The notes beneath the pieces are model-generated. The model was not told where the DNA came from. It ran no database searches and saw nothing but the letters and a program-made list of their open reading frames with translations. Positions 93 through 23,610 of a stretch of DNA of 32,000 nt are shown here, piece by piece (the first letter of the stretch is position 1; every line of letters begins with the position of its first letter). Origin of the DNA: Nonlabens ponticola (GTDB taxonomy: Bacteria; Bacteroidota; Bacteroidia; Flavobacteriales; Flavobacteriaceae); NCBI RefSeq assembly GCF_003966335.1, contig NZ_CP034549.1:2610001-2642000 (forward strand). Direction: 5' to 3'. Both the position numbers and the translations under genes were made by a program.

Positions 93-938
93 ATGGCTGA
101 TATACAGCAATTAAAAGACCTTACCACGCAGGTGCGACGCGACATTGTGCGTCAAGTACATGCAGTAAACAGTGGTCATCCAGGTGGCTCACTAGGCTGT
201 GCGGAATTTCTAGTGGTTCTCTATAACGAGATCATGCAACACGATCCTAGTTTTGACATGGACGGTAAAGGAGAAGATCTGTTCTTCCTTTCTAATGGCC
301 ACATCTCACCAGTATTTTATAGCGTTTTAGCTCGTGCTGGATATTTTCCCGTTGAGGAATTGAACACCTTCCGTAAGCTGGATTCCAGACTACAAGGTCA
401 CCCAACGACTCATGAAGGACTACCAGGCGTGCGTATTGCCAGTGGTTCACTAGGTCAAGGAATGAGTGTTGCCATAGGTGCTGCCGAGGCTAAAAAACTC
501 AACAATGACAAGCGCACGATTTTTACATTGCACGGTGATGGAGAGTTGCAGGAAGGCCAGAATTGGGAAGCAATCATGTATGCCAGCGCTAACAAGGTTG
601 ATAACCTTATCGCGACCATCGATGTTAACGGTCAACAAATTGACGGTAGTACAGAGAGCGTTCTGGCACTAGGAGATCTTGAAAATAAGTTTGTGGCCTT
701 CGGCTGGGAAGTTGTTATAGTGGCAAACGGGAACGATATAGCCAGTGTGATTTCTGGTATTGAAGAGGCGATCTCGCTTTCGCGAAAGCAAAAACCTGTA
801 TGCATCCTGCTTCATACAAGCATGGGCCATGGTGTGGACTTTATGATGGGTTCTCACAAATGGCATGGTGTAGCTCCTAATGATGAGCAACTTGCAGAAG
901 CACTGAAACAGAATCCTGAAACGCTAGGCGACTACTAA
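93..938 (+). CDS. Transketolase, N-terminal thiamine-diphosphate-binding subunit (split transketolase)
   Basis: ORF 15..938 contains the GHPGGSLG and GDGELQEGQNWEA motifs typical of the TPP-binding half. I moved the start to ATG 93 (MADIQQLKD...) because the ORF-track start is a TTG and the upstream residues look non-coding. Palindrome copy at 776..789 lies inside. Confidence 0.9.
   Translation: MADIQQLKDLTTQVRRDIVRQVHAVNSGHPGGSLGCAEFLVVLYNEIMQHDPSFDMDGKGEDLFFLSNGHISPVFYSVLARAGYFPVEELNTFRKLDSRLQGHPTTHEGLPGVRIASGSLGQGMSVAIGAAEAKKLNNDKRTIFTLHGDGELQEGQNWEAIMYASANKVDNLIATIDVNGQQIDGSTESVLALGDLENKFVAFGWEVVIVANGNDIASVISGIEEAISLSRKQKPVCILLHTSMGHGVDFMMGSHKWHGVAPNDEQLAEALKQNPETLGDY
776..789. repeat. 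Iterated perfect palindrome GCTTTCGCGAAAGC, copy 1 (inside transketolase-N CDS, read as L-S-R-K)
   Basis: Exact 14-nt match read directly from the sequence. Context is atctCGCTTTCGCGAAAGCaaaaa. Confidence 0.95.
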
Positions 939-969
939 TATTAAAACTACTGCCATCGCAGATAGACAT

Positions 970-1923
970 ATGAAAACATATACAAATACAGGAAATAAGG
1001 ACACGAGATCAGGTTTTGGCGCTGGGTTGACCCAACTGGGCGATACCAATAAAAATGTGGTTGCATTGTGTGCCGATCTTACGGGATCGCTCAAGATGAA
1101 TGAGTTTGCAGACCGCTACCCAGAACGTTTTTTTCAAGTAGGAATTGCTGAGGCTAACATGATGGGAATCGCAGCAGGACTTACTATCGGCGGTAAAATT
1201 CCATTTACGGGAACTTTTGCTAATTTCTCTACAGGTCGCGTTTATGACCAGATAAGACAAAGCATTGCTTACTCAGACAAGAATGTGAAAATTTGTGCTT
1301 CGCATTCTGGATTGACTCTAGGAGAAGATGGAGCAACACACCAGATTCTTGAGGACATTGGCCTTATGAAAATGCTGCCTGGTATGACCGTCATCAACAC
1401 ATGTGATTATAATCAAACCAAGGCCGCTACACTAGCCATTGCAGATCATCACGGACCAGTATATTTGAGATTTGGCCGTCCCAAGGTTGCTAACTTCACT
1501 CCTGAAGATGGTGAATTTCATATAGGCAAAGCCGTTCATTTACAAGAAGGTAGCGATGTAACTATTGTTGCGACAGGACATTTAGTTTGGGAAGCACTAG
1601 AAGCTGCTAAGGAATTGAACGAAAAAGGCATCAGTGCCGATGTGATCAACATTCACACCATCAAACCGCTCGATGAAGAAGCGATCATCAAGTCAGTCAA
1701 GAAAACAGGCTGCATCGTCACTGCTGAAGAACATAACTATTTAGGCGGATTAGGTGAAAGTGTTGCTCGTACACTTGCCCAGCATCATCCAGCACCACAG
1801 GAGTTTGTCGCTACTCAGGATACCTTTGGCGAGAGTGGAACGCCAGCGCAACTGCTAGAGAAATACGGGCTTAATGCAGCCAATATTGCTAAACAAGCAG
1901 AAAAAGTGATCGCTAGAAAATAA
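970..1923 (+). CDS. Transketolase, C-terminal pyrimidine-binding/regulatory subunit
   Basis: 317-aa ORF 31 nt after the N-terminal subunit. FQVGIAEANMMGIAAG and GEDGATHQ motifs are typical of the transketolase Pyr domain. Confidence 0.9.
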   Translation: MKTYTNTGNKDTRSGFGAGLTQLGDTNKNVVALCADLTGSLKMNEFADRYPERFFQVGIAEANMMGIAAGLTIGGKIPFTGTFANFSTGRVYDQIRQSIAYSDKNVKICASHSGLTLGEDGATHQILEDIGLMKMLPGMTVINTCDYNQTKAATLAIADHHGPVYLRFGRPKVANFTPEDGEFHIGKAVHLQEGSDVTIVATGHLVWEALEAAKELNEKGISADVINIHTIKPLDEEAIIKSVKKTGCIVTAEEHNYLGGLGESVARTLAQHHPAPQEFVATQDTFGESGTPAQLLEKYGLNAANIAKQAEKVIARK

Positions 1924-1942
1924 GCTAGCAATTGACCTAAAT

Positions 1943-1978
1943 AAAAGACCCTTTGATTTATAAATCAAAGGGTCTTTT
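1943..1978. terminator. Bidirectional rho-independent terminator between convergent genes
   Basis: Perfect 36-nt inverted repeat aaaagaccctttgattta/taaatcaaagggtctttt with an A-run on one side and a T-run on the other. It lies between the stops at 1923 (+) and 1998 (-). Confidence 0.8.
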
Positions 1979-1997
1979 TATGCCTTAAATAATTTGG

Positions 1998-2945
1998 TTA
2001 AGAGGTGGTAACGTCTGTCGCATCATCTAGATAATCTGGAATACCATCATTATCGCTATCCTGTGCGTCCTCTGGATTACCATCGCCATTAGGGTCTGGA
2101 TTCTCATCACGAGTTGGGATACCATCGTTATCATCATCTTCATCGAGATAATTGAATCGTTGACCTATTCTTCTACCCTGATTGTTCAGGATAAAATCCT
2201 CATCGGTATTATCGATATCTCCTGTTCTTACATCGCGGTCATCGTTAAGATCTTCAAACTTTGAGAAAATGCCATCGCCATCATGATCAGTAGTTTTTAC
2301 TCGTCTTACCTTAAAGGTGAATATAATAGGAGAATATGCTGGAATTCCAGTTGGTGTTCCATTAAAGTAAGCAATACCAGATGGCATAAATACTGCACCA
2401 ATTCCAGACCCATTGAAGTTTATTGTACCATCATCTTGAGGCTCGCTAGAATCAGCCTCCTTGAATTCTTCAAGTGCCACTGCAAATCCATCAATCGTTG
2501 ACGGCAAATCAAACCACAAAGAGTTGATTGAGTTATCAAATTGAGTCAAGTCCAGTAATTTACCACTATAACTGACTAGCGCACTATCGGCAAAAGTGGC
2601 ACTATTCTCACCATCTCCTTCTCGAGCCTTTAATATATAATAGGTATAATCGATATCGTCACGTGTGAGTGTGCGCGTCTCAACCTGATCAATTAATGGC
2701 GTACTGTCATCACCATCTTCAATTAAGCTAAATTCAATTTCAAAATCATCGCCATCATCTATATCATCCAACTCATCGCTATTCCATGTATGTGTACTCA
2801 AGAATTTAGTCAGCGAGTCTAAGTCTTCCTCAAACACTTCACGAGCATCTCTTATCACGATTCCAGGATCATCATCATCTGGACTACAGGAAATAACAGC
2901 TGCGATTGCAATGGCCACAATCACTAAATATTTTAAACTTTTCAT
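1998..2945 (-). CDS. Lipoprotein with FKBP-like domain and C-terminal Asp-rich thrombospondin-type-3-like Ca-binding repeats
   Basis: ORF 1998..2966. Start taken at ATG 2945 (MKSLKYLVIVAIAIAAVISC, lipobox Cys). The central segment LVSYSGKLLDLTQFDNS...IDGFAVALEEF...AVFMPSGIAYFNG...IIFTFKV aligns by eye with the FKBP fold signature. The tail contains DHDGDG and DNDGIPxxD repeats. Confidence 0.6.
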   Translation of the reverse strand: MKSLKYLVIVAIAIAAVISCSPDDDDPGIVIRDAREVFEEDLDSLTKFLSTHTWNSDELDDIDDGDDFEIEFSLIEDGDDSTPLIDQVETRTLTRDDIDYTYYILKAREGDGENSATFADSALVSYSGKLLDLTQFDNSINSLWFDLPSTIDGFAVALEEFKEADSSEPQDDGTINFNGSGIGAVFMPSGIAYFNGTPTGIPAYSPIIFTFKVRRVKTTDHDGDGIFSKFEDLNDDRDVRTGDIDNTDEDFILNNQGRRIGQRFNYLDEDDDNDGIPTRDENPDPNGDGNPEDAQDSDNDGIPDYLDDATDVTTS

Positions 2946-2982
2946 AGGAGTTTTTAAGAGCGTCAAAGATAGTATTTTCGGC

Positions 2983-2990
2983 TATTTTTG
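2983..2990 (+). promoter_or_regulatory. Candidate Bacteroidota -7 promoter box (TAnnTTTG) for hslR-like gene
   Basis: TATTTTTG lies 31 nt upstream of ATG 3021. Confidence 0.35.
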
Positions 2991-3020
2991 TAGAGATAAC
3001 GTGATTTTATACCTTGTCAT

Positions 3021-3401
3021 ATGCGCATCGATAAATATTTATGGTCTGTACGATACTTCAAGACAAGAAGTAAGGCCACTGCAGCTGCCAAAAAAGGTCG
3101 CCTGCGTGTGAATGGTGATGTCGTAAAACCTGCGCGAGATGTATATCCTGGCGATATGATTGTGATGCGCAAGGATCAAATAGACTACACGGTCGAGGTG
3201 CTCGACTTACCACCCAATCGGGTAGGTAACAAATTGGTAGACCTTTATAGGGTAGATCGCACACCACGAGAAAATTTTGAGGCTCGCAAAATGGTAGAAC
3301 TCAATCAGGACTACTACCGCCGCAAGGGTGAAGGTCGTCCTACTAAAAAGGATCGCAGGGAACTCGATGACGTACTTGATGCTCCTCATGAAGAAGAATG
3401 A
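3021..3401 (+). CDS. hslR: S4-domain RNA-binding heat-shock protein 15-like
   Basis: RIDKYLWSVRYFKTRSKA S4 motif and C-terminal RPTKKDRRELD, which resembles the Hsp15 tail. Confidence 0.75.
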   Translation: MRIDKYLWSVRYFKTRSKATAAAKKGRLRVNGDVVKPARDVYPGDMIVMRKDQIDYTVEVLDLPPNRVGNKLVDLYRVDRTPRENFEARKMVELNQDYYRRKGEGRPTKKDRRELDDVLDAPHEEE

Positions 3402-3416
3402 TGGATGAAGAGTTAC

Positions 3417-3430
3417 GCTTTCGCGAAAGC
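3417..3430. repeat. Iterated palindrome copy 2 (intergenic, 16 nt after hslR stop)
   Basis: Exact 14-nt match. The left arm is the full consensus gttacGCTTTCGCGAAAGC; the right arm diverges (tgaaac). Confidence 0.95.
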
Positions 3431-3485
3431 TGAAACACGCATAAACAATTAAAGAATCAACTGACTGTATCTTAACCACAAGCCT

Positions 3486-3974
3486 ATGATTATTCTTGAC
3501 AACCAGCAAGTGACCAACAAAATACGTCGTATTGCCTACCAAATTGCAGAGGTCTACATGGATCACGATGCTATTGTATTAGCAGGCATCATGGATGGCG
3601 GGCATAGTTTCGCTAGATTGTTGAAAGCTGAGCTGGATCGCATCAACATGTTTGAGACATTATTGTGTGAAGTTCATGTAGATAAAAAGAATCCACGTGC
3701 TGCTATAAGTACCAGCATTACTGCAGCTCAATACGAAAATAAGGGTGTAGTATTATGTGATGATGTTCTCAACTCAGGAACAACGCTGGTATATGCTGTC
3801 AGACATTTTCTAGATGTACCGCTGACCAAATTCAAAACCGCCGTGCTCGTAAATAGAAATCATAAAAAATATCCTGTAAAGGCAGATTTTAAAGGAATCT
3901 CTTTGAGTACTACGTTACAAGAACACGTGCAGGTAGATCTTAAAAAAGATAATTATAGTGTGAGTCTACAGTAA
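3486..3974 (+). CDS. Phosphoribosyltransferase family protein (PyrR-like)
   Basis: VVLCDDVLNSGTTL PRPP-binding motif. Size and N-terminus resemble PyrR/uracil PRT-type proteins. Confidence 0.7.
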   Translation: MIILDNQQVTNKIRRIAYQIAEVYMDHDAIVLAGIMDGGHSFARLLKAELDRINMFETLLCEVHVDKKNPRAAISTSITAAQYENKGVVLCDDVLNSGTTLVYAVRHFLDVPLTKFKTAVLVNRNHKKYPVKADFKGISLSTTLQEHVQVDLKKDNYSVSLQ

Positions 3975-4502
3975 ATCCTCAATTTCGGCTACTATCTGAT
4001 TAACCGTTTTATTTTCAATGCTAAGATTGTGGGTCGCCTCATTGTAAAATCCTGATCGTTCTAGCAGATGCTTTCCAATAAACTCGGCGAGATCATCTTG
4101 TTGTTCAAATCTCGAGATCAATGGTCGATGCGCTCGCTCATCAAACAAGCGATTTGTCAAAAAAGGTACTGCGGCTCTCAAATAAAAACTAATTGCCTCG
4201 TTCGATTGGCTAATCAGCTTCATATTATTATAGTAACATGGTGTGCCGCCGCCTAAGGCTAAAACTATTTTTTCATCACCTTCTAGAACCTCTTTTAGGC
4301 AATCGTGCTCCCTTTTCCTGAAATAAATAGCACCCTTTTCTTGAATAACTTGAGAGATACTTGCCTTTTCTCTCTCTTCCAGATAATCATCCAGGTCAAT
4401 GAATTCTCTTTCTAATAATACCGCAAGTTCCTTACCTACAGTAGATTTACCAGAACCCATGTAACCCAATAGTATGATTTGTTTAGGCTCATTTGCGATC
4501 AT
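3966..4502 (-). CDS. aroK: Shikimate kinase
   Basis: Walker A LGYMGSGKSTVG, LGGG motif and about 178 aa, typical of AroK. Its 3' end overlaps the convergent gene by 9 nt. Confidence 0.85.
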   Translation of the reverse strand: MIANEPKQIILLGYMGSGKSTVGKELAVLLEREFIDLDDYLEEREKASISQVIQEKGAIYFRKREHDCLKEVLEGDEKIVLALGGGTPCYYNNMKLISQSNEAISFYLRAAVPFLTNRLFDERAHRPLISRFEQQDDLAEFIGKHLLERSGFYNEATHNLSIENKTVNQIVAEIEDLL

Positions 4503-4568
4503 AATAAGTAGATAAATATTTAGACGAATTTATATTAAAAAAAATACGGCTGTATAAAAGATAGGTTT

Positions 4569-4576
4569 TATATTTG
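4569..4576 (+). promoter_or_regulatory. Candidate -7 promoter box (TAnnTTTG) for the tRNA pair
   Basis: TATATTTG lies 21 nt upstream of the tRNA-Lys 5' end. Confidence 0.4.
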
Positions 4577-4597
4577 CACCCGCATTTAAACAATGAC

Positions 4598-4670
4598 GAC
4601 TTGGTAGCTCAGCTGGTAGAGCATCACACTTTTAATGTGAGGGTCCTGGGTTCGAACCCCAGCCAAGTCA
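4598..4670 (+). tRNA. tRNA-Lys (anticodon TTT)
   Basis: Hand-folded cloverleaf. Acceptor gacttgg/ccaagtc, D stem gctc/gagc, anticodon stem tcaca/tgtga with loop cTTTTaa, T arm ctggg-ttcgaac-cccag. No encoded CCA. Confidence 0.9.
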
Positions 4671-4690
4671 CAGAAGCCGTAAGGCCTAGA

Positions 4691-4719
4691 AGCCCTTATT
4701 TTTATAAGGGCTTTTTTTT
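4691..4719 (+). terminator. Hairpin plus T-run between the two tRNAs
   Basis: agcccttat-tttt-ataagggct followed by an 8-nt T run that ends one base before tRNA-Leu. Confidence 0.55.
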
Positions 4720-4801
4720 ACCCAGGTGCTGAAATTGGTAGACAGGCACGGTTGAGGGCCGTGTGTATTTATACGTGTGGGTTCAAGTCCCATCCTGGGT
4801 A
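4720..4801 (+). tRNA. tRNA-Leu (anticodon GAG), class II with long variable arm
   Basis: Hand-folded. Acceptor acccagg/cctgggt, D stem ctg/cag with aaattggtaga loop, anticodon stem cacgg/ccgtg with loop ttGAGgg, variable arm tgtatttatacgt, T arm gtggg-ttcaagt-cccat. Confidence 0.85.
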
Positions 4802-4809
4802 CTCTAAAC

Positions 4810-4843
4810 AACCCTTGTGATCTTAACATCGCAAGGGTTTTTC
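4810..4843 (+). terminator. Rho-independent terminator after tRNA-Leu
   Basis: Stem aacccttg/caagggtt followed by a T run. Confidence 0.5.
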
Positions 4844-5030
4844 TATATCTTATTTGTAGCCTTTTGAATGAGTGTCTTGTCCTCAATATTCAATATTTTT
4901 GTTCAGTTTTTGTAGGAATCACTGGAAATATAAAGTTTATATGATTTTTCTTCAATTCTTTAAAATTTTCTTAACCCGCTAATTCAATAGGATTCAAGAG
5001 TTTCGTTGAAATTAAAACTAGTAATGTCAA

Positions 5031-5100
5031 GGTTTTAACAGTGTAGGATCGAATATCTCATGAGATCAGTGTTTAACTTTGTAGACATATCGTTAAACAA
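5031..5100 (+). promoter_or_regulatory. Candidate promoter/operator region of the carotenoid operon
   Basis: A TAACTTTG -7 box at 5074..5081 lies 26 nt before GTG 5107. It sits inside the inverted repeat GTTTAAC-N14-GTTAAAC (5071..5098). There is a 12-nt perfect palindrome ATCTCATGAGAT at 5055..5066. A direct repeat TTAACAGTGTAG (5035..5046) / TTAACTTTGTAG (5073..5084) is also present. Confidence 0.4.
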
Positions 5101-5106
5101 AAATCA

Positions 5107-6003: not shown

Positions 6004-6014
6004 TAAAATACATC

Positions 6015-8317: not shown

Positions 8318-8319
8318 GA

Positions 8320-8766: not shown

Positions 8767-10822
<2,056 letters not shown>

Positions 10823-10847: not shown

Positions 10848-11968
10848 CCATAGTTGGTATGGGTTGCGCCGGTAGCCATGTGCTGCTGGCGATGCTGGAG
10901 CACGAACAATTCATGGACAAAAGCATTCTCATTCTCGACGATTACAGTGCTGATAGTCTTGAGAAAACATGGAGTTATTGGGAAAAAGGTACTGGTAAGT
11001 GGGATCACCTCATCTCACAGCAATGGAATCAAGGTTCATTTATATCGCACAACAAATCCATTGACCTAGATCTCGATCCGTATCATTATAAGATGATTAA
11101 AAGTGTTGATTTTATAGCTTTCGCGAAAGCAAAATTCCAACACCACTCTAACATCACACACGTTGCCGAAAAAGTGACCGACGTTCGTCAAGGGCATACC
11201 GCAAGGATATTCACAGAATCTTGCACTTACCAGGCAGATCTAGTACTTGATAGTCGCGTATCACAAAAGTTCTATAACAACACTAATGCCATTACACTCA
11301 AACAACACTTTCTAGGCTGGCATATCAGGACTGAGAAAGATCTATTTGATCCAGATCATTTTGTAATGATGGACTATAGATATCAAGATCCTGGCACCAC
11401 TAGTTTTATGTATCTGCTACCTTTTGAAAAAAATGAAGCATTAATTGAATACACCTATTTCTCTGGAGAGCTAGTAGACGACGCGGTTTATGAAAGTAAA
11501 ATGCGGGAATACCTCAAAAAAGAATATAAGCTGGATGAATTTGAAATAGTAAGAATCGAGCAAGGTGTCATTCCTATGACGACCTATGATTTTACTGCGC
11601 ATAATACTCAGGTAGTTCACAAAATAGGAACCGCTGGCGGCTGGGTAAAGGCAAGTACTGGTTACAGTTTTAAAATGAGTGAGAAACGCGCCGCGCAGTT
11701 AGTAGATAATTATATTACCGGTAAGGATCTAGGCCACAATATGCAGGAAGCCAAATATCGATGGTATGATCAAATTATGTTAGACGTGTTGCATCAGGAT
11801 AACGGTCGTGGCGATAAGGTCTTCACAACACTTTACAGTAAAAACGATATCCAGCGCATTTTTGCTTTTCTAGATGAAGAAACCACGTTTCAACAAGAAT
11901 TACAGATCATGCTGCCCATGACATCTTATCCTTTTGTAAGATCCGCGGTTACCAGTTTCTTTAAATGA
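10823..11968 (+). CDS. crtY: Lycopene cyclase (possibly monocyclase type)
   Basis: ORF 10706..11968. Start moved to ATG 10823 (MDHHKYDIAIVGMGCAGSHV, FAD GxGxxG directly after the Met). Lycopene cyclase family length. Contains palindrome copy 4. Confidence 0.8.
11117..11130. repeat. Iterated palindrome copy 4 (inside crtY CDS, read as A-F-A-K-A)
   Basis: Exact 14-nt match. Flanks are ttataGCTTTCGCGAAAGCaaaat. Confidence 0.95.
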
Positions 11969-14412: not shown

Positions 14413-14413
14413 A

Positions 14414-15115
14414 ATGGAAAATTTTACGTGTAGAATGTTAGAAGCTATTCCGCTTTCGCGAAAGCAGAATCCAAAAAAAGCCTTTCATTATTGCTTTCTA
14501 GCCATTGCTTTCTCAATACTCGCAGGAATAAATGCTCGCGCCCAAGAGAAAGAATACTTCATCGACTATGCTGGACTCAACGCGGGTTTTTCACGTCAAG
14601 ATGTATTCCCGTACAATAATGACAACTATTTTCACGAAAGCAGGTATCTTAAAGTACAGCTAGGTAAGGAAGTATGGAATCGTAAAAAACAGTCGATAGA
14701 GGTGCTGGTTGAGCCATCTGTTTATTTTGTCAAACATAGAATGCTCAATTTTTTCTACATCAAACCTCAAGATGCAGAAAATTTTATGGAGTTGCGAGAT
14801 CGATTTCTTCAACCTCTTGAATACGAAGAATATGCATTAAATATAGGGCTGATATACAGGTATGAATTCAGCGATCTCTGGAGTGCTTACGGGCAGATAA
14901 GCATTGGTCCAATGATCGCGACAGAGAGAACTGAACGCCAAGATGAAGGATTTTCGTTTTCAGACATTGTAGGATTGGGTACCACCTATCGACACGATCG
15001 CTGGCGATATGATCTACGGTTTACACTAAGACACGTAAGCAATGCAGATCTAACCGAAAATAATGACGGTCATAATAATGCTGGTATCGAAATCGGAGTT
15101 GGAATCAATCTCTAG
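14414..15115 (+). CDS. Acyloxyacyl hydrolase (PagL-like lipid A deacylase family) outer-membrane protein
   Basis: ORF 14372..15115 trimmed to ATG 14414 (or 14435), because the upstream part overlaps ggt. Signal peptide ...FLAIAFSILAGINARAQ. C-terminal RHVSNADL...NNAGIEIGVGINL carries the H-x-S-N catalytic signature. Palindrome copy 5 lies in the signal n-region. Confidence 0.65.
   Translation: MENFTCRMLEAIPLSRKQNPKKAFHYCFLAIAFSILAGINARAQEKEYFIDYAGLNAGFSRQDVFPYNNDNYFHESRYLKVQLGKEVWNRKKQSIEVLVEPSVYFVKHRMLNFFYIKPQDAENFMELRDRFLQPLEYEEYALNIGLIYRYEFSDLWSAYGQISIGPMIATERTERQDEGFSFSDIVGLGTTYRHDRWRYDLRFTLRHVSNADLTENNDGHNNAGIEIGVGINL
14452..14465. repeat. Iterated palindrome copy 5 (5' end of PagL-like CDS, read as L-S-R-K)
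   Basis: Exact 14-nt match. Context is attcCGCTTTCGCGAAAGCagaat. Confidence 0.95.
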
Positions 15116-15177: not shown

Positions 15178-15199
15178 AATATTAAAAGATAGCTCTTAC

Positions 15200-17665: not shown

Positions 17666-17689
17666 ATTACGCTTTCGCGAAAGCGTAAT
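17666..17689. repeat. Iterated palindrome copy 6, full 24-nt perfect form (intergenic)
   Basis: ATTACGCTTTCG/CGAAAGCGTAAT is a perfect 24-nt palindrome with its core at 17671..17684. It lies 49 nt downstream of the moxR stop and about 200 nt upstream of the acn start. Confidence 0.95.
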
Positions 17690-17737
17690 AATCACCATCT
17701 AGACTGCTATAATTAAAAATCCAGAGAAAATTCTGAA

Positions 17738-18691
17738 CTATAATATCTGAGCGATCAAGCTATCCTCAGTGTGTCCTTCAGCCTCGGCTTTGTAGTTTTT
17801 GATGATGCGATGGCGCAGAATTCCAGTGGCGACAGCCTTTACATCTTCAATATCCGGGCTGTATTTTCCATGGATAGCTGCATGAGTTTTGGCTGCCAAA
17901 ATCAGGTTTTGCGACGCACGTGGTCCGGCGCCCCAATCAATGTATTCCTTGATAATATCTGGAGTCGTATCAGCCTTAGGTCTGGTTTTGCCTACCAATT
18001 TTACCGCATACTCAATCACATTATCAGCTACGGGAATGCGACGTACCAACTGCTGTAAGTCAACAATTTCCTGGGCACTAAAAAGCGGATTAACCTGTAC
18101 TTTCTTATCCGTTGTGGTGGATTTTACTACATCAATCTCTTCTTGATAAGTAGGATATTCTAGATTGATGGCAAACATGAATCGATCCAGCTGCGCTTCT
18201 GGCAACGGGTAGGTTCCTTCTTGCTCAATAGGATTTTGTGTCGCAAGAACAAAATAAGGATTTGCCAGTTTGTATTGCTGTCCAGCAACGGTGACTGATC
18301 GTTCTTGCATAGCTTCTAGAAGTGCAGCTTGAGTTTTTGGCGGCGTTCTATTGATCTCATCTGCAAGGACGATATTTGAAAAAACCGGTCCTTTTATAAA
18401 TTTAAAATTACGGCTCTCATCTAGTATCTCGCTACCTAAAATATCACTAGGCATCAAGTCTGGAGTAAACTGTATGCGCTTAAAGTCAAGACCTAATACC
18501 TGAGAAATAGTATTCACCATCAGTGTTTTTGCAAGTCCTGGAACACCAATGAGCAATGCGTGACCACCTGAAAATATGGAAATAAGAATCTGATCAACGA
18601 CTTGATCTTGACCGATGATTATTTTGGCTATTTCCTGTTTGAGTTGCTTGTGTCTTACAACAAGGTTATCAATGGCTGTAACGTCTGACAT
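17738..18691 (-). CDS. MoxR-family AAA+ ATPase
   Basis: Walker A GVPGLAKT, Walker B LADEINR, about 317 aa and a MoxR-type C-terminal region. Confidence 0.88.
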   Translation of the reverse strand: MSDVTAIDNLVVRHKQLKQEIAKIIIGQDQVVDQILISIFSGGHALLIGVPGLAKTLMVNTISQVLGLDFKRIQFTPDLMPSDILGSEILDESRNFKFIKGPVFSNIVLADEINRTPPKTQAALLEAMQERSVTVAGQQYKLANPYFVLATQNPIEQEGTYPLPEAQLDRFMFAINLEYPTYQEEIDVVKSTTTDKKVQVNPLFSAQEIVDLQQLVRRIPVADNVIEYAVKLVGKTRPKADTTPDIIKEYIDWGAGPRASQNLILAAKTHAAIHGKYSPDIEDVKAVATGILRHRIIKNYKAEAEGHTEDSLIAQIL

Positions 18692-18718
18692 GCTGGTAGG
18701 TTGGTGATTAATTGCAAT

Positions 18719-20230
18719 TTACTGTGTCCACTGCTGCAGGAAGTCGCACTTCTTATACTCATCTCCTATTTTGACATAGGTATCCTTGAGTTTTTCCTCG
18801 CGCCATTCTGCAATCTTGCGTACTTGCTTATCTCGCAATGCTAATTCTTTGATCTTGAGAAAATCACCTGTGTAATCAGCCTTATGATCCTTGATTTTTT
18901 TAATCAAATTGACGATGGTAAAAGTTGCAAGATTTTGACCACCTGGCGCTCTACTCTCGATGATACCACTCACATCGCCTTCTTCCATAAACTGGACCGT
19001 AGATACAAGGTCAGGAGCGGCTCGTGTCAAGTCCAGTCGATATTCACCCGTCTGTGGATTAACGAGTTGTCCACCGTTTTTGGCAGTGCGCTTTTCATCA
19101 CTTATCGCTCTGGCAGCATCTGCAAATGATATTTGATTGAGAATAATGCTATCACGCATGGTCTCTAACTTACGTCGCGCTTTAGCCTCTTGAGCGGTAC
19201 TGATGTATGGATATAATAATATATGACGCACGTCTCTCACTGATCCGCGTATCTTCTCTAGGTAAACAATATGCCAACCGAATTGCGTTTCAAAAGGCTC
19301 GCTTATCTGCCCAACCTCAGTCAATGAAAACGTTGCATCCTTAAACTCTTTAGCATAAGGATCGCTACGTTTTAAACTCAATACGCCACCTTGACGCTCA
19401 GTCCCTATATCCTCAGAGAATAAGGTTGCTTTTGCAGCAAAATCAGAACCATTTTCTAAAACATCAGTTCTATATTGATTGAGTTTATCGATAACATCTT
19501 GTACTGCTTCTTCGGTAGGGACTGCGTTGACAACAATACGAGCCATTTCTACCTCTGTATTAAAGAGTGGTCGTTCATCTTCTGGAATATTGTAAAAAAA
19601 CTGACGCACCTCTTCTGGAGTGATGTCTACTTCTTCCGTAAGGCGTTGTTGCATGCGATTAGACAATAATTCGTCACGACCCAATTGATTGAGCTCATCG
19701 CGCAACTGCTGTACTGTTTCTTTTTGATAGTATTGAGCTACCGTTTCCTCGCTCACACCACCTAGTTTATCTTGAAAGTAACGTATGCGTTGATCAGTAT
19801 AACCGTTAATCTCAGCATCTGCTACCGTGATACTGTCTTGTATCGCATGGTGCGCATACATTTTTTCGATCAACAAAGATTCCATTAAATCACACTCTGA
19901 CAAATCACCTGGCTGCCCTGATCTTTTCCATGCCTGCAATTGCTTTGAAATATCAGATTCTAAAATAACATAATCACCGATGACCCCAGAAACACCGTCA
20001 ATACGAAATCTCACCTCGCGTCGAGGTTGCTTGACAGTATCATTGAGCGCTGATAATACATCGCGCTTGATTTGCTCATCTGATTGCTGTTGTACTTTGA
20101 CATCAAATTGATTACCAGCGGTCCTAGGTTTTACTTGCTGCGCATAGCCTATACTCGCAAATGCTAGGGCCACAAAAACGCTGGTCAATTTAAGGATTGA
20201 CTTTAAGTCGTTTATTTTGTATTGCATCAT
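18719..20230 (-). CDS. Periplasmic peptidyl-prolyl isomerase, SurA-like (one parvulin domain)
   Basis: Signal peptide and the parvulin signature ETQFGWHIVYLEKIRG. Confidence 0.75.
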   Translation of the reverse strand: MMQYKINDLKSILKLTSVFVALAFASIGYAQQVKPRTAGNQFDVKVQQQSDEQIKRDVLSALNDTVKQPRREVRFRIDGVSGVIGDYVILESDISKQLQAWKRSGQPGDLSECDLMESLLIEKMYAHHAIQDSITVADAEINGYTDQRIRYFQDKLGGVSEETVAQYYQKETVQQLRDELNQLGRDELLSNRMQQRLTEEVDITPEEVRQFFYNIPEDERPLFNTEVEMARIVVNAVPTEEAVQDVIDKLNQYRTDVLENGSDFAAKATLFSEDIGTERQGGVLSLKRSDPYAKEFKDATFSLTEVGQISEPFETQFGWHIVYLEKIRGSVRDVRHILLYPYISTAQEAKARRKLETMRDSIILNQISFADAARAISDEKRTAKNGGQLVNPQTGEYRLDLTRAAPDLVSTVQFMEEGDVSGIIESRAPGGQNLATFTIVNLIKKIKDHKADYTGDFLKIKELALRDKQVRKIAEWREEKLKDTYVKIGDEYKKCDFLQQWTQ

Positions 20231-21086
20231 CTAATAATTCCTTTTCTAGATTTTTAATGTATGTAAGTTTACGCTGGTTGCGCAAAATTTGCTTAATGGT
20301 AGGTTGTACGTATGATAAAGGCGCTTGCTCACCGCGTTTGAGCACATCCTTTACATGTACCAAATATACGCCAAGACTATCCTCTAGCTTCCAGTTACTT
20401 CCTGGTTTTAGATAGTCTGCAGCATTAGCCGCAGTTATAGGACTTATGCGTTCAAGAACGGTGCCGCGGTTGACCCAAACATCGTCATTGAGTGAGTAAT
20501 TGCGGTATCCTAATGATAAACTATCTAGTGCTTTGACACTTTTCAGGTCATTACGTTTAAAGAGCTTGTAAATTTCTTCTACATCTGGGTAAGATGCATC
20601 TAGCGATATGTATCTAAATTTGACTAACTCTTCATTGAGTTTAAATTCCTCTTTCCGCTCCTGAAAATATTGCTCAATAGTCGATTTGCTAAAGGTTGTG
20701 TCAAGATTTGCCTTTACCAACTCTTGCAAATAAGCCTGTGTGTAAAGCTCCATTTGATATTTTTTGATCAGTAATTGAAGGTCATCTTGCTTATCCTGAG
20801 TTATATTCTTGCGTGCATTGCGCAGCAACATCTGGTCTGTCGTCCAGTCGTCAATGTATTTTTGAACGATAAGAACACTATCTGCTGTAGTATAATCTGC
20901 AGGTAGAATAGATAATATCTCTGCACGTGTGAGATAAGCATCACCTAGTTGTGCAACGGCATCTGGTTGTTCTTGATTTGTAAAAAACTCACAAGAAACA
21001 ATGGTCAAACAGGCAATGAATGCAAACAGATATTTAAGCAGCTTTTTTAGCAATGGCTTTCTTGGTTTTTTTGAATACTCGTTCAT
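20190..21086 (-). CDS. Lipoprotein with degenerate parvulin-like domain (PPIase-like chaperone)
   Basis: Lipobox LTIVSC. The C-terminal SLGVYLVHVKDV resembles the parvulin G-x-H-x-[IV] strand. Overlaps both neighbours (41 and 53 nt). Confidence 0.5.
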   Translation of the reverse strand: MNEYSKKPRKPLLKKLLKYLFAFIACLTIVSCEFFTNQEQPDAVAQLGDAYLTRAEILSILPADYTTADSVLIVQKYIDDWTTDQMLLRNARKNITQDKQDDLQLLIKKYQMELYTQAYLQELVKANLDTTFSKSTIEQYFQERKEEFKLNEELVKFRYISLDASYPDVEEIYKLFKRNDLKSVKALDSLSLGYRNYSLNDDVWVNRGTVLERISPITAANAADYLKPGSNWKLEDSLGVYLVHVKDVLKRGEQAPLSYVQPTIKQILRNQRKLTYIKNLEKELLDDAIQNKRLKVNP

Positions 21087-23013
21087 TTACTTTGATCTCT
21101 CGACCATCGCGCAGGCTTTCCATCCATTCCTTTTCAAGCGCTTGCTGATAATCATTGATGACAGCACCACGAGATTCCTCAAAACTTTTAGGAGTTGGAT
21201 CTAGGATCTCATTTACCTTGATTACTTTATGAAATGCTGCATTGTCTTTCTTATAGATATCAGACACACCTTCTTTCACTTCAAAATCCTCTGGCAATCG
21301 TGAGTAATTTTGCTCAACGATACCTGTAGAAATCATGGTTTTAGTATTACCAGTACTGTTTATTTGAGCTTTTATCTCATCTACTGTTTTGCCTTGCTCT
21401 AGCAATTCTTGTACTTGCTGCGCGGTTTCCTCACTGGTATTTTGGGTAAGAATAAGGTCTAGTCGTTTCCCATAGCTGTATTTGTCTTTGTTATTCTCAT
21501 AAAATTCTCTCTGACCTAGAGAATCTGTTTTAGCTTTTTCCCAGACTTTCTCTTCCATCAATTCAAACAACAGCAGTCCTTCTTTATACTCATTTAGAAT
21601 AAATGCAAATTCCTTGTTATCACGATCAAGATTTGCCTCATAGTAATCCACAAGTGATCTGTCACTAAATTCTGTAAAATAAATCTTTATCTTATCCTCT
21701 AAAGACTTGAATTTGCGAGGATCTTTCAAATGACGCTTATAGGCATATTCCCAAAAATCACTGCGGTAGTAGGGCTTACCTTCTATGGTAAATAACGGCG
21801 CACGTTTTGTTTTCTCCAATGGTATTTCCCAACTACTAGTCATTATAGAATCCGTTATTAGTGGAAACTCCTTTGAGTAATTCTCGTATTTAGGAATCGT
21901 CACATTATATTTCTCTTTAATGCTATTTGTGAAAGACTCGGTAATCTTGCGAGAACGTGGTGAGCTTTTTATTTTATTTCTCAACGGTTCTTCTATCTTT
22001 TCATAAGGCGCAACAGGATGTTTCTCCAGTAATCTTATGATGTGCCAGCCGTATTCTGTTTTTATTGGTTTTGTGTAAGTTCCTAAGGTATCAAGTGCAA
22101 AGGCTGCTTCCTCAAATTCTGGAGAATTCAAGCCGCCAGTGCCAAATCTTCCTATGCGACCACCATTGCGCGAACTATTGATATCTTCAGAGAATTCTTT
22201 GGCCATATCGCCAAATTCTTTGCCAGACTCTAATTGCTCATAAACCATTCTTATGCGAGCCTCAGCATCTGCGCTATCGGCTGGTTTGCGATCGTATGTC
22301 ATAATGTGTGCAACTGCAACCTCACCTGGCGCTGGTCTTTTATCATTTACCTTGAGTACATGATAACCAAAGTCTGTTCTAAAGATATCTGAAACCTCAC
22401 CAACTGGTGTGTCAAAGGCTGCATTCTCAAAAGGATACACCATTCTAAATGCACCAAACCAGCCAATCTTACCATCTACACCAGCGCTAGGACCTTCACT
22501 CTCGTTGCGTGCCAGCTCGTCAAAGTCTGCACCTCTATCTAACTTGTTTTTAATCAATTTTATCTTGCTATAGGCCTTCAAAGTATCAGCTGGCGCAGCG
22601 TCCTTATCCACCTTTATCAAAATATGGCTCGCGTTGACTTCATTTATCGTTCTTTCATAGGCCTCCTTTATTAGCTCATCGGTCACCTCGTTGTCGGTGA
22701 GATAACCTTCGGCAAGAGTAGATCTATAGCTAGCTAGTTCTTCTTTATATTCCTCGTCATTATCCAGTCCCATTTCTTGAGCCTGCAGCAATTTGAGCCT
22801 GTAATTGATATACAGATCCATGTAATTGTCTAGATCCTTTTGTGACTCGTCTTGTACGATGTCAAGATTCTTGAGGTAAACACGCATAAAAGTTCCTGCG
22901 TCGTATTTATTACCGTCGATAGTGAGTAAGGTTTGATCCTCAAGTTTTTGAGCATTAGCGGTAATTGCTAACAACAAAATCATGGCATTCAAGCCTGTAA
23001 GTAGTTTCTTCAT
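21034..23013 (-). CDS. Peptidyl-prolyl isomerase with two parvulin domains (PpiD/SurA-like)
   Basis: Signal peptide and two rotamase signatures, DFGYHVLKVNDKRP and EYGWHIIRLLEKHP. 659 aa. Confidence 0.8.
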   Translation of the reverse strand: MKKLLTGLNAMILLLAITANAQKLEDQTLLTIDGNKYDAGTFMRVYLKNLDIVQDESQKDLDNYMDLYINYRLKLLQAQEMGLDNDEEYKEELASYRSTLAEGYLTDNEVTDELIKEAYERTINEVNASHILIKVDKDAAPADTLKAYSKIKLIKNKLDRGADFDELARNESEGPSAGVDGKIGWFGAFRMVYPFENAAFDTPVGEVSDIFRTDFGYHVLKVNDKRPAPGEVAVAHIMTYDRKPADSADAEARIRMVYEQLESGKEFGDMAKEFSEDINSSRNGGRIGRFGTGGLNSPEFEEAAFALDTLGTYTKPIKTEYGWHIIRLLEKHPVAPYEKIEEPLRNKIKSSPRSRKITESFTNSIKEKYNVTIPKYENYSKEFPLITDSIMTSSWEIPLEKTKRAPLFTIEGKPYYRSDFWEYAYKRHLKDPRKFKSLEDKIKIYFTEFSDRSLVDYYEANLDRDNKEFAFILNEYKEGLLLFELMEEKVWEKAKTDSLGQREFYENNKDKYSYGKRLDLILTQNTSEETAQQVQELLEQGKTVDEIKAQINSTGNTKTMISTGIVEQNYSRLPEDFEVKEGVSDIYKKDNAAFHKVIKVNEILDPTPKSFEESRGAVINDYQQALEKEWMESLRDGREIKVNERVFKKTKKAIAKKAA

Positions 23014-23044
23014 TTATCTTTTTCTTGCAGTTGGCAAAATTAGG

Positions 23045-23052
23045 TCTTTCCC
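23045..23052 (-). promoter_or_regulatory. Candidate -7 promoter box for the PPIase-moxR operon
   Basis: The plus strand reads CAAAATTA, which is TAATTTTG on the minus strand. It lies 32 nt upstream of the start at 23013. Confidence 0.35.
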
Positions 23053-23133
23053 GTAGTGTTTCAAAACGTGCGCAGTGCTGTAATATTTTACGATTTTTGT
23101 CAAGTTTCACCTCTGTTTACGTACCAATACCAC

Positions 23134-23610
23134 ATGATCGAGTCAAACCATCAAGTAACCATTCACCAACCTATTGATGTGGTAATGGACTTATTCAACA
23201 ATCAGTCCAATTTTAAACATTGGCAGCGAGGTCTGGTAGATTTTGAAAACATTACCAGTACGGTAGGGCAAGTAGGCAGTAAACGCAAATTGCGTATCAA
23301 GACGCCAGCTGGAATCATTAGTATGAACGAGACAATCACGCACCGCGATTTACCGCACCGTTGGGAAGCGACGTACCGTACAAAAGGAGTACTTAATAAG
23401 CAATGCAACAGCTTTCGCGAAAGCGTAACAACCACCAATGGCATACCACAAAAAGTAACCATCTGGAAGTCTCAAGCATCTTTTAAATTTACAGGTATGA
23501 TGCGACTTGTGTCTAAAGCAAGACCTCAACTATTTGAGAATCAAACGCTGCAATTTATGAAAGACTTTAAAGATTTTGCAGAAAATGGCACCTCTGTGAC
23601 GAGCGCATAA
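23134..23610 (+). CDS. SRPBCC (START/polyketide-cyclase-like) family protein
   Basis: ORF 23056..23610 trimmed to ATG 23134 (MIESNHQVTIHQPIDVVMDLF...W). Size and N-terminal pattern fit SRPBCC. Contains palindrome copy 7. Confidence 0.5.
   Translation: MIESNHQVTIHQPIDVVMDLFNNQSNFKHWQRGLVDFENITSTVGQVGSKRKLRIKTPAGIISMNETITHRDLPHRWEATYRTKGVLNKQCNSFRESVTTTNGIPQKVTIWKSQASFKFTGMMRLVSKARPQLFENQTLQFMKDFKDFAENGTSVTSA
23411..23424. repeat. Iterated palindrome copy 7 (inside SRPBCC CDS, read as F-R-E-S)
   Basis: Exact 14-nt match. The right arm keeps the consensus GCTTTCGCGAAAGCGtaac. Confidence 0.95.

Follow-up and report, generated by a model that had tools for sequence, protein, structure and literature searches.

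The described systems closest to the sequence word analyzed here are HIP1 of the cyanobacteria as well as the uptake sequences DUS of Neisseria and USS of the Pasteurellaceae. HIP1 (GCGATCGC) is 8 bp long, phylum-wide, 15-300-fold enriched and found about once per kb or denser, with many one-off variants concentrated at the outer positions and with known cognate methyltransferases, which its variants follow (PMC4390886). It is conserved, quasi-periodic and now linked to transformation (PMC5861425; bioRxiv 10.1101/2024.09.10.611283, 10.64898/2026.06.24.733823), its function being debated between chromosome structure, the role proposed by Xu et al. (PMC5861425), and transformation (PMC5861425, PMC4390886, 10.64898/2026.06.24.733823). 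In the family of the strain investigated here, Riemerella columbina is naturally competent and prefers its own DNA (PMC7965970). DUS and USS are asymmetric words of 9-12 nt, occurring about once per kb with abundant near-matches; their biased uptake was shown experimentally, and they often form inverted pairs acting as terminators.

The sites Noc NBS, SlmA SBS, MatP matS, and ParB parS are read by dimeric proteins, a chromosome has 1 to ~100 of them, and their placement follows macrodomains, either by confinement or by exclusion. The half-sites of parS and NBS contain TTTC/GAAA-like runs. Chi, which RecBCD or AddAB recognizes, is asymmetric, 5-8 nt long, co-oriented with replication and few-fold over-represented; it is not known to keep its codons invariant across species. 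The palindromes of REP/BIME elements are imperfect, measure 20-40 nt, cluster outside genes, and flank a Y1 transposase gene.

In a 32-kb stretch of Nonlabens ponticola DNA (in the following, the window), the perfect 14-bp palindrome GCTTTCGCGAAAGC occurs in seven exact copies, starting at positions 776, 3417, 9488, 11117, 14452, 17671, and 23411. An initial annotation of this DNA had reported these starts and considered them to be beyond chance, which our counts support, as dinucleotide shuffles of the window contained 0.00 exact matches on average. There were no further matches at up to two mismatches in the window, all its occurrences of TTCGCGAA fall within the copies of the 14-mer, and only one isolated half-site was detected in it. 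The copies are listed below with their 5' and 3' flanks:

Copy 1, 776..789: within the transketolase N-terminal subunit gene (ORF 15-938, + strand), read in the frame xxG CTT TCG CGA AAG C as LSRK; flanks tctc and aaaa.
Copy 2, 3417..3430: intergenic, 16 nt past the stop of an S4-domain ORF (3401) and 56 nt before the start of a phosphoribosyltransferase gene (3486); flanks ttac and tgaa.
Copy 3, 9488..9501: within a crtD-like gene of the phytoene-desaturase family (8767-10227, + strand), read as cGC TTT CGC GAA AGC gta, RFRESV; flanks ttcc and gtaa.
Copy 4, 11117..11130: within the lycopene cyclase gene (crtY; Pfam match from about 10841 to 11968, + strand), read as GCT TTC GCG AAA GCa, AFAKA; flanks tata and aaaa.
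Copy 5, 14452..14465: 40 nt past the stop of a gamma-glutamyltranspeptidase gene (14412); codons 6-10 of a PagL-like ORF (LSRK), just upstream of the signal peptide, if the start is ATG 14436, and otherwise its 5' leader; flanks ttcc and agaa.
Copy 6, 17671..17684: intergenic, between the start of the aconitase gene (17467, - strand) and the stop of a MoxR ATPase gene (17738, - strand); full 22-bp palindrome TTACGCTTTCGCGAAAGCGTAA.
Copy 7, 23411..23424: within a putative ORF (23056-23610, + strand, 184 aa), read as aGC TTT CGC GAA AGC gta, SFRESV; flanks aaca and gtaa.
Footprint around copy 1, 757..808: about 52 bp, i.e., the core ±19 nt, with the same span at the other six copies.

The former assignment of five copies to genes and two to spacers stands for the transketolase-N, crtD-like, and crtY genes and for the intergenic copies at 3417 and 17671. 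It applies to the PagL-like gene only if ATG 14436 is the start, and the SRPBCC label for the putative ORF around copy 7 was not confirmed, as no Pfam family matched this 184-aa ORF. With gaps of 1.6-6.1 kb between the copies, the window also does not host a CRISPR array, for which repeats of 25-40 nt with short regular spacers would be expected; the initial annotation had come to the same view.

Extension of the analysis beyond the window revealed the word in 12 out of 12 fetched Nonlabens loci (47 copies in 227 kb), while 68 loci of other Bacteroidota (1.19 Mb) contained no copy. A metagenome scan added at least 120 stretches with at least 223 copies, originating from many long contigs. After removal of the copy by which a stretch had been ascertained, the density in the metagenomes was one copy per 8.5 kb among the matches listed, and the overall density amounts to about one copy per 4-9 kb; these densities, like the taxonomic limits, are those of the sampled loci, the metagenome contigs carrying no taxonomic assignment. 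Found at such a density on many unrelated contigs, the word is implied to exist in hundreds of copies per genome. Markov models of order 2-5 on the masked background predict 0.0003-0.003 copies in 1.14 Mb, compared with 277 observed among the matches listed; the enrichment of the word exceeds 10^5-fold. A frequency at background level, an artefact and an absence from relatives had been named beforehand as grounds for abandoning the proposal. None of them applies; the word occurs at orthologous and at other sites in independent isolates, MAGs, and metagenomes of many projects. No other 12-mer palindrome reached a comparable copy number in any locus; three occur twice, each within one locus.

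More than half of the copies (146-160 of 277 among the matches listed) lie within ORFs, in all three frames (87:44:29), and 98 lie outside ORFs, so that the earlier description of a word found in all frames and in spacers is borne out. Copy density in spacers is 4-5 times that of coding DNA. Copies were also found in prophage or phage modules encoding portal, capsid, and protease, with flanks and spacing as elsewhere. Taken together, the word is a property of Nonlabens and its close relatives, iterated genome-wide in genes, spacers, and prophages.

Regarding the anatomy of the word, the initial annotation had proposed a longer 24-mer, which indeed matches fully at 17666-17689 and with one mismatch at 9483-9506, while its left arm is complete at 3412. 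Based on 239 independent sites, a better consensus is the 22-bp palindrome TTnC-GCTTTCGCGAAAGC-GnAA, whose two n positions (±2) tend to be complementary to each other (44% vs 29% expected); a contribution of hairpins or template switching, or else a mixture of species, may lie behind this. Near-matches are scarce. Among the matches listed, 277 perfect copies compare with 22 one-off and 19 two-off variants, and sites carrying the flank signature comprise 169 perfect copies and 7, 3, 2, and 2 sites at rising mismatch count, without excess of three-mismatch sites. The one-off variants show no concentration at outer positions, and only two compensatory changes were found among the two-off variants. 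We found neither spacer variants of the palindrome nor extra half-sites. The isolated half-site, which the initial annotation had not noticed in the window, is not enriched either (87 in 1.14 Mb vs 158 in 1.19 Mb of outgroup). The word family is all-or-none.

Its copies avoid each other within ~1.5 kb. Gaps below 1 kb were observed seven times, with 25.6±4.2 expected and none of 1,000 simulations reaching so low a number; the median gap overall is 3.3 kb. In addition, the flanks are strand-skewed over about ±19-30 nt, with a C-poor, T/G-rich 5' side and a G-poor, A/C-rich 3' side, and follow a 3-nt beat, with a preference for T at -4, -7, -10, and -13 and for A at +4, +7, +10, and +13. Across the 239 independent sites, skew and beat keep the same phase in spacers and in each coding frame separately, and both exceed those at equivalent outgroup positions. 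The flanks are common in composition, not in sequence, and together with the core they give a footprint of 50-75 bp per copy.

These features bear on the idea that the word is abundant without function, as a by-product of methylation-linked biased repair according to Elhai's model for HIP1. Here, a methyltransferase with TCGCGA or CGCG as its internal subsite would work alongside an enzyme of the very-short-patch type to turn near-matches into the word. The core does contain both subsites, the variants of HIP1 go with their cognate methyltransferases (PMC4390886), a quick conversion of one-off sites would explain their scarcity, two of the two-off variants carry C-to-T changes placed symmetrically at the TCG cytosines, and conversion would extend to resident prophage DNA. 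However, a specificity of 14-22 bp is far above known methyltransferase/Vsr contexts, and the model predicts neither the repulsion between copies nor skewed flanks with a 3-nt beat. Sites with two to four mismatches show no excess or gradient, and the one-off variants, unlike those of HIP1, are not concentrated at outer positions. Outside the word, TCGCGA and CGCG occur at outgroup-like frequency, with no sign of the avoidance that restriction would leave. We therefore consider this explanation quite improbable.

Comparison of orthologous sites revealed that the word is conserved as DNA. At the crtD site (copy 3), 11 of 13 Nonlabens sequences use the same codons, and synonymous differences occur in the codons next to them; the two variants carry one (L121) and two mismatches (L122). 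The codons of the crtY site (copy 4) are the same in 10 Nonlabens loci, and L122 keeps the residues A-F-A there with other codons (GCC TTT GCA CAA), which shows that the DNA, rather than the peptide, is constrained. Identity at third positions of identical four- and sixfold degenerate residues is 0.37, corresponding to saturated silent sites, and in orthologous comparisons with flanks less than 80% identical the word was perfect in 158 of 190 cases. Spacers behave alike: the one between the S4-domain and phosphoribosyltransferase genes (copy 2) contains a copy in all seven Nonlabens loci having both genes (eight of eight with the window), even though the spacer itself has diverged beyond blastn alignment, and the one between the aconitase and MoxR genes (copy 6) contains a copy in L119, L121, L122, L125, L127, and L128, with none in L120 and L133. 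No copy was found in the context of copy 5 in the other loci, so that this copy either belongs to one lineage or goes with the PagL-like gene. Once made, copies stay letter-perfect under a constraint that targets the DNA itself and neither the peptide nor hairpin stability.

The same sites illustrate how copies arise. Outgroups differ from the word at 5-11 of 14 positions at the crtD, crtY, and tktN sites, where flanking residues align and no sign of an insertion or indel was seen; at the crtD site they encode FHFNxxV at equal length, with a mean of nine mismatches. Copy 1 is common to the window and N. tegetincola (L119 710), and its site in L121, L122, L124, and the outgroups lacks the word (7-9 mismatches) with no sign of insertion. 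Its presence in some and absence from other Nonlabens and the outgroups indicates a gain within the genus. As far as the alignments tell, copies are made in place by nucleotide substitution, at times altering amino acids. A graded molecular drive would leave an excess of intermediates with two to four mismatches; none was seen, although a new site needs about eight changes.

This origin agrees with the former exclusion of IS and MITE copies. Recent transposition or contamination would be expected to leave many identical copies, and young insertions of a mobile palindromic element (MITE-like or similar to the Rickettsia palindromic element), or an assembly or vector artefact, might thus come to mind. 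But the three coding sites examined show no sign of an insertion, reading frames remain open at the copies despite a length of 14 nt, which is no multiple of three, and sites are common to species with saturated silent sites. As the flanks are alike in composition only and the word is found across isolates, MAGs, and metagenomes, this reading is hardly conceivable in general and already refuted for the sites examined.

A palindrome could likewise act as an RNA or ssDNA hairpin, a REP-like element serving as terminator, mRNA stabilizer, processing site or Y1/HUH substrate, and an RNA-hairpin site had been among the functions initially considered. In favor of this, the ±2 position covaries, spacers are richer in copies than coding DNA, and three window copies lie 16-54 nt past a stop codon. 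Two window copies have stable stems of 10-11 bp, copy 6 folding as ssDNA into a 10-bp stem (-9.4 kcal/mol, z -4.65). Against this, the core is invariant and not covarying, and as ssDNA it folds alone no better than shuffles at five of the seven window copies. On both strands, A and not T prevails in the 3' flank, contrary to the build of an intrinsic terminator; none of 14 terminator-like hits coincides with a copy, and the hairpin formed by the core is weak. Tandem, convergent, and divergent spacers contain copies equally often, and the majority of copies lies in genes in any frame. Furthermore, no copy matched a known RNA family in Rfam 15 at gathering threshold (the only matches being two tRNAs at 4598-4801), and a Y1_Tnp transposase gene in L126 is flanked by a repeat different from the word. 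Spacer orientation, folding, and the terminator scan thus disfavor the hairpin function, which we regard as very unlikely.

A dimeric protein as reader is the common theme of two further interpretations. According to the first, a putative chromosome-organizing or nucleoid-associated dimeric protein binds the word, which would be a very dense analogue of Noc NBS, SlmA SBS, MatP matS, or ParB parS. Selection would keep the copies at regular intervals as anchors of loops or domains or as marks of the nucleoid. On similar grounds, Xu et al. argued for a chromosome-structure role of HIP1 (PMC5861425). The 14-bp perfect palindrome with its parS/NBS-like TTTC...GAAA half-site flavor, the all-or-none behavior expected from a high-specificity binder, the even spacing, the conserved positions, and the ~52-bp footprint with its fairly sharp edge at ±19 are all consistent with such a protein. 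In contrast, the known sites number 1-100 per genome while hundreds are implied here, and phage structural modules carry the word at host-like density, for which host chromosome structure has no obvious need. Strand-skewed, 3-nt-periodic flanks are, to our knowledge, not a feature of the parS, NBS, SBS, or matS systems. A chromosome organizer is therefore rather unlikely in our view.

In any case, the word is a DNA signal without earlier description, like uptake sequences or HIP1; we found no published account of it. Our preferred interpretation, which is tentative, is that a symmetric (homodimeric) protein with sequence specificity recognizes the word in duplex DNA and that the word marks DNA of the lineage as "self" in the manner of USS, DUS, and HIP1, most likely for DNA uptake and/or the start of homologous recombination. 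The missing intermediates, the length, symmetry, and few near-matches of the word compared with known uptake sequences and Chi, and the complementarity at ±2 weigh against this interpretation. The invariant core, the few compensatory variants and the lack of better folding point to sequence recognition rather than structure, and the even spacing would be explained by one site per few-kb segment being sufficient. On either side, the strand whose 3' end would lie at the site is rich in GT, poor in C and carries the 3-nt beat, and this would be the geometry of an ssDNA 3' tail under a RecA-type filament; Tracy and Kowalczykowski (1996) reportedly found that RecA prefers GT-rich DNA.

A bolder proposal, which we judge unlikely, takes the palindrome as a bidirectional entry or cut site for recombination with built-in loading ramps ("palindromic Chi/uptake signal"). 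The 22-bp duplex would be recognized by a symmetric protein, on incoming DNA during uptake or on the chromosome, and cut or unwound at its center, and in both halves the C-free, GT-rich track of 15-30 nt in 3-nt register, on the strand with its 3' end at the site, would then nucleate a RecA/DprA-type filament. We know of no bacterium in which such a design has been described. If true, it would represent the first sequence-specific self-DNA signal of the Bacteroidota.

Compared with the known systems, the word shares with REP/BIME that it is palindromic and iterated hundreds of times, and it is set apart from REP/BIME with RAYT by the location of over half of its copies in ORFs, its perfect core and the mutual repulsion of copies. 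With Noc NBS, SlmA SBS, MatP matS, and ParB parS, which are palindromes of 12-16 bp, often within genes and conserved in position, it agrees in format, and its all-or-none behavior would fit a site of this type. The hundreds of copies implied per genome, prophage DNA included, do not fit a parS-type set of 1 to ~100 sites per chromosome. Chi resembles the word in density (about once per 4.5 kb in E. coli), in lying mostly in genes, in taxon specificity, and in the GT-rich strand of the 3' tail; a palindromic 14-bp word is nevertheless no Chi site, which is short and asymmetric.

The comparison with DUS and USS goes further. Like these, the word is lineage-specific, genome-wide in genes and spacers, spacer-enriched, evenly spaced, and present in resident phage DNA; copies of both kinds originate by substitution at tolerant protein positions, are conserved between relatives, and combine a strong core with weaker flank preferences. 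Unlike these, the word has no asymmetric 9-12 nt core with many near-matches and no association with terminators; known uptake sequences and Chi taken together are asymmetric words of 5-12 nt with many near-matches, whereas the present one is a perfect 14-bp palindrome with almost none. HIP1 and the present word are both GC-cored, GC-rich and perfectly palindromic, hyper-abundant in spacers as well as in every coding frame, conserved at orthologous positions beyond neutral expectation and spaced non-randomly, and neither acts as a peptide, RNA, or expression motif. The word is not HIP1 proper or one of its alternate cyanobacterial octamers, being a different 14-mer in a host from the Flavobacteriaceae and not the cyanobacteria. 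The HIP1- or uptake-sequence-like behavior of a longer word, as suggested by the initial annotation for the window, thus extends genome-wide and genus-wide, with a 14-bp core within a 22-bp palindrome, confinement to one genus-level flavobacterial lineage, skewed, 3-nt-periodic flanks, and an all-or-none character as the traits distinguishing it from HIP1.

The scan of the window recovered GCTTTCGCGAAAGC, a perfect 14-bp palindrome, as exact copies at 776, 3417, 9488, 11117, 14452, 17671, and 23411, confirming the seven copies listed in the initial annotation, and revealed no extra site at up to two mismatches. Exact matches in dinucleotide-preserving shuffles of the window amounted to 0.00. 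All seven TTCGCGAA octamers of the window are located inside these copies, and isolated half-sites, which had not been noticed before, are limited to one. The window has a G+C content of ~40% and a gene content of ordinary housekeeping and carotenoid genes. The copies are found in the following settings:

Transketolase-N gene: one copy, reads LSRK
crtD-like gene: one copy, reads RFRESV
Lycopene cyclase gene (crtY): one copy, reads AFAKA
PagL-like gene: one copy, in codons 1-10 or in the leader
ORF 23056-23610, a putative gene without family match: one copy
Intergenic spacers: two copies

From the initially proposed distribution over five coding sequences and two spacers, the two intergenic copies and three copies clearly within conserved genes, each using another frame, were retained; the PagL-like copy belongs either to codons or to the leader, and the remaining one lies in an ORF without family.

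Further features of the window were recorded. Two tRNA genes (4598-4670 and 4720-4801) are located between a shikimate kinase gene and a carotenoid operon (5107-11968), the first gene of which encodes a MerR-family regulator with a B12-binding domain, a predicted architecture of the light-responsive LitR/CarH type. Next in the operon come crtI, crtB, a small ORF without family, the crtD-like gene, Caroten_synth, and lycopene cyclase, and the carotenoid gene order is kept across Nonlabens. Cumulative GC skew peaks at about 12000-16000 and the gene orientation changes from + to - at about 15 kb in a convergent arrangement; in a 32-kb window, this peak may represent the replication terminus or merely local gene orientation. 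Three consecutive genes on the - strand (18719-23013) carry SurA/PpiC-type peptidyl-prolyl isomerase domains. In a glycan-degradation cluster (25724-31837), GH3 and GH16 (laminarinase-like, with PKD domain) are joined by a CBM-like ORF and a protein bearing a C-terminal T9SS sorting domain, and the 14-mer is absent over about 8.5 kb in this region.

A scan with the crtD-like protein, considering one genome per species, led to 80 loci, the top 12 of which (68-73% identity) all belong to Nonlabens or Nonlabens-like bacteria. GCTTTCGCGAAAGC is present in each of these 12 loci (two to six copies each, 47 per 227 kb), and no copy was detected in the 1.19 Mb of the remaining 68 loci, taking in Saprospiraceae, Psychroflexus, Flavobacterium, Algoriphagus, Fluviicola, and many MAGs. 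Word-bearing and word-free genomes part at about genus level. None of these loci showed a repeated palindrome of its own at comparable copy number, and neither the Nonlabens-like DNA nor the 68 outgroup loci contained a second motif or other iterated palindrome as abundant.

A metagenome scan with TTNCGCTTTCGCGAAAGCGNAA as query provided at least 120 stretches (880 kb, G+C 0.32-0.48) that stem from numerous different contigs, the longest reaching 980 kb, of marine and saline-lake projects. These contigs are assumed to be Nonlabens-like. At least 223 copies occur among the stretches listed, corresponding there to a density of 1 per 8.5 kb after subtraction of the one search-required copy per stretch. 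In total, 277 copies in 1.14 Mb compare with 0.0003-0.003 expected from Markov models of order 2-5. The word is thus far above the k-mer background and, considering the shuffles as well, chance occurrence is ruled out, in agreement with the initial claim. The many different, long contigs indicate that the word is genome-wide, and their unrelated nature rules out a local cluster of the kind formed by parS at the origin. Recovery of the word by many independent projects excludes an artefact. No published description of the word was found in full-text literature searches.

Viral contigs among the matches listed mostly hold single chance copies and are unrelated and often of high GC. Also among the matches listed, a set of viral contigs, mostly with 36-43% G+C, carries two to three copies per 11-15 kb, and the two examined contain portal, major head protein, head protease, and head-tail adaptor genes. 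Copies on these phage-module contigs share the flanks and spacing of the word family.

Orthologous sites allowed the history of individual copies to be followed. At the crtD-like site, outgroup orthologues are of equal length and encode FHFNxxV (e.g., TTC CAT TTC AAC GAA AGG), differing from the word at 5-11 of 14 positions (mean 9). The codons CGC TTT CGC GAA AGC are identical in 11 of 13 Nonlabens sequences, with near-misses in the Nonlabens loci L121 (one mismatch) and L122 (two), and the flanking codons vary synonymously within the genus. Third positions at identical four- and sixfold residues show an identity of 0.37 at an overall nucleotide identity of 68% in the gene compared; its silent sites are saturated between these Nonlabens species. 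At the crtY site, GCT TTC GCG AAA GC is common to 10 loci. Here, L122 keeps Ala-Phe-Ala via GCC TTT GCA, placing the constraint at the DNA and not at the peptide. A peptide motif is ruled out by this persistence of the peptide without the word and by the use of three frames and spacers. Recent recombination spreading the sites across species is unsupported, since site-adjacent codons differ synonymously between species. The L122 lineage (Nonlabens sp. MAG 3300049783_147) may undergo faster site decay: its crtD copy (2 mismatches) and its crtY copy (4 mismatches, Lys to Gln besides the retained Ala-Phe-Ala) are lost, and 3 copies in 21 kb are retained.

Gene-order mapping located the copy of the S4|PRT spacer in 8/8 genomes, though the spacer itself is unalignable, and that of the aconitase|moxR spacer in 7/9. 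Only the window and N. tegetincola carry the transketolase copy; in three further Nonlabens, the site differs from the word at 7-9 positions, as in the outgroups, with no sign of insertion. The transketolase copy therefore looks like a gain inside the genus, which would have taken about 8 substitutions and altered three residues. Among orthologous comparisons with ±150-nt flanks below 80% identity, a phylogenetically non-independent set, 158 were perfect, 10 differed by one base, 10 by two bases, and 12 by more (one with an indel). As far as site alignments and gene-order mapping indicate, copies are made in place, slowly turned over, and otherwise frozen, being kept at orthologous sites across Nonlabens. 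Gap-free orthologue alignments at the three coding sites examined (crtD, crtY, and transketolase) rule out an insertion element.

The word behaves in an all-or-none manner. Sites with 0, 1, 2, and 3 mismatches number 277, 22, 19, and 33 in the 1.14-Mb set vs. 0, 0, 6, and 61 in an equally large outgroup set. With the flank signature as an additional requirement, 0-5 mismatches account for 169, 7, 3, 2, 2, and 3 sites. Most one-off sites bear the flanks of the word family and thus look like decaying copies, and no reservoir of intermediates is visible in the mismatch counts. Isolated half-sites are not enriched (87 vs. 158 in the outgroup), and spacer variants of the palindrome are absent from the 1.14-Mb set. 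The two-mismatch variant GCTTTtGCaAAAGC was observed in two independent cases (L207 9656 and L282 7393, both compared stretches) and equals a symmetric C-to-T exchange at the TCG cytosines of both strands. Deamination of methylated cytosines would give this pattern, two cases being too few to conclude.

Based on 239 independent sites, the element consensus is TTnC-GCTTTCGCGAAAGC-GnAA. At its two n positions, 44% of sites are complementary vs. 29% expected (A:T 45, C:G 31, T:A 30, G:C 0). Past ±4, complementarity of mirrored positions is no higher than composition predicts, which rules out a longer hairpin. In the 5' flank, C is reduced to 1-9% (background 19%) and T and G are increased, resulting in a GC skew of +0.53 to +0.62 at -5 to -19 and +0.25 at -20 to -29, fading to about zero past -35. 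The 3' flank, G-poor and A/C-rich, mirrors this composition. T peaks at -4, -7, -10, and -13, and A at +4, +7, +10, and +13. Skew and 3-nt beat keep the same phase in spacers and all three coding frames and are therefore no codon effect. At the crtD site, the right 18 nt contain on average 1.4 G in Nonlabens vs. 4.0 in outgroups, the skew being stronger in Nonlabens. Folded as single-stranded DNA, 5/7 window copies perform no better than shuffles. The invariant, non-covarying core, the weak hairpin, the missing half-sites, and the strict symmetry point to the word being read as duplex DNA by a putative symmetric, sequence-specific protein. A serious rival to an uptake or recombination signal is a putative, dense chromosome-structuring binding site.

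Placement statistics rest on crude ORF calls. By these calls, spacers make up ~13% of the DNA, yet host ~41% of classified copies, with densities of 1 per 1.45 kb in spacers and 1 per 6.8 kb in genes. Copies occupy tandem, convergent, and divergent spacers in proportion to the numbers of these (36, 32, 14, and 21 copies vs. 232, 229, 93, and 124 spacers, again based on crude calls) and hence show no tie to 3' ends or promoters. None of 14 terminator-like hits (window 1-20000) falls on a copy, and no Rfam match was obtained at copies, the two tRNAs being the only ones found in the window. Terminator hits, Rfam, spacer usage, flanks, and folding together rule out a terminator or known RNA.

Copies repel each other. 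In de-duplicated metagenome stretches, to which the gap statistics are restricted, only 7 gaps are shorter than 1 kb vs. 25.6±4.2 under random placement (0/1000 simulations as low), and the median gap is 3.3 kb vs. 2.1 kb. The even spacing fits a benefit that would saturate at one site per DNA segment. The word may have a methylation-linked origin; the even spacing argues against a mutational or repair bias alone. Restriction avoidance of TCGCGA or CGCG was not seen. The genes beside unusually close copy pairs (parDE, uvrB, infB, a SPOR protein, and unknowns) gave no lead to a cognate gene. In stretch L255, three copies within 1.9 kb (2550-4461) enclose a parDE toxin-antitoxin pair (2755-3295) together with a small ORF without known function (3588-4286), and another small ORF of this sort (4606-5073) is located just downstream; copies appear to set these small accessory genes apart. 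The closest pair (L266, 1736 and 1959, 223 bp apart) straddles the uvrB 5' end.

Another repeat family, GCGCGCGTTTGCAACGCGTGC...GCTGAGCATTTGTAATGC, unrelated to the 14-mer, was observed in three Nonlabens loci (L121 15079-17227 with 14 copies, L126 15362-16030, and L124 14072). In L126, it is found on both sides of a 192-aa IS200-like Y1 transposase ORF (15399-15977; Pfam Y1_Tnp, E 5e-8) inserted upstream of aconitase, an arrangement resembling a Nonlabens REP/RAYT system. As the repeat flanking the transposase is a different one, a link of the 14-mer to this RAYT-like transposase is ruled out. For the 14-mer itself, the defining tests failed for a REP/RAYT element, a MITE or RPE insertion, a CRISPR array, an intrinsic terminator, a Chi site, and a low-copy parS/NBS-type site, so that the early dismissal of CRISPR and IS/MITE copies was borne out, the latter also by the gap-free alignments.

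Taken as a whole, a word that is genome-wide, confined to one lineage, spacer-enriched, born by substitution, kept in position, evenly spaced, and present in resident phage DNA bears what we interpret as the signature of the USS/DUS/HIP1 class. The likeness to HIP1 and uptake sequences proposed in the initial annotation, with a longer word, is supported by these shared properties. Naturally competent species exist in the family, one of them with a preference for its own DNA (PMC7965970), and HIP1, the nearest analogue, which is conserved and quasi-periodic (PMC5861425), is now tied to transformation (bioRxiv 10.1101/2024.09.10.611283; 10.64898/2026.06.24.733823). In combination with the flank geometry, this favours a role in uptake and/or recombination, which we infer for the word. 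In their geometry, the flanks correspond to 3' single-stranded tails that terminate at the site, GT-rich, C-poor, and in triplet register. Such GT-rich, triplet-register tails recall RecA-type filaments. The missing intermediates and the covariation at ±2 are unexplained by the uptake/recombination, chromosome-structuring, and methylation accounts alike.

To our knowledge, genome-wide "self" words are few (USS, DUS, Chi, KOPS, and HIP1), and we know of no such signal in Bacteroidota. Each of these words gave insight into uptake, recombination, or chromosome handling. No other word of this kind known to us is as long and as sharp as that of Nonlabens, with its invariant 14-bp core, >10^5-fold enrichment, and all-or-none occurrence, and its mirror-image, strand-skewed flanks in 3-nt register represent a new anatomy. 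The word also illustrates, in transketolase and the carotenoid genes, that a DNA-level signal shapes which codons, and even which amino acids, ordinary enzymes use. In practice, it can serve as a metagenome marker for Nonlabens DNA and word-carrying prophages and phages and, if it promotes uptake or recombination, as a genetic handle for marine flavobacteria. Differing in word, length, and phylum, it is not HIP1. Uptake sequences and HIP1 are closest to it in working; unlike these, the Nonlabens word is a long perfect palindrome of all-or-none character, accompanied by skewed, periodic flanking tracks.
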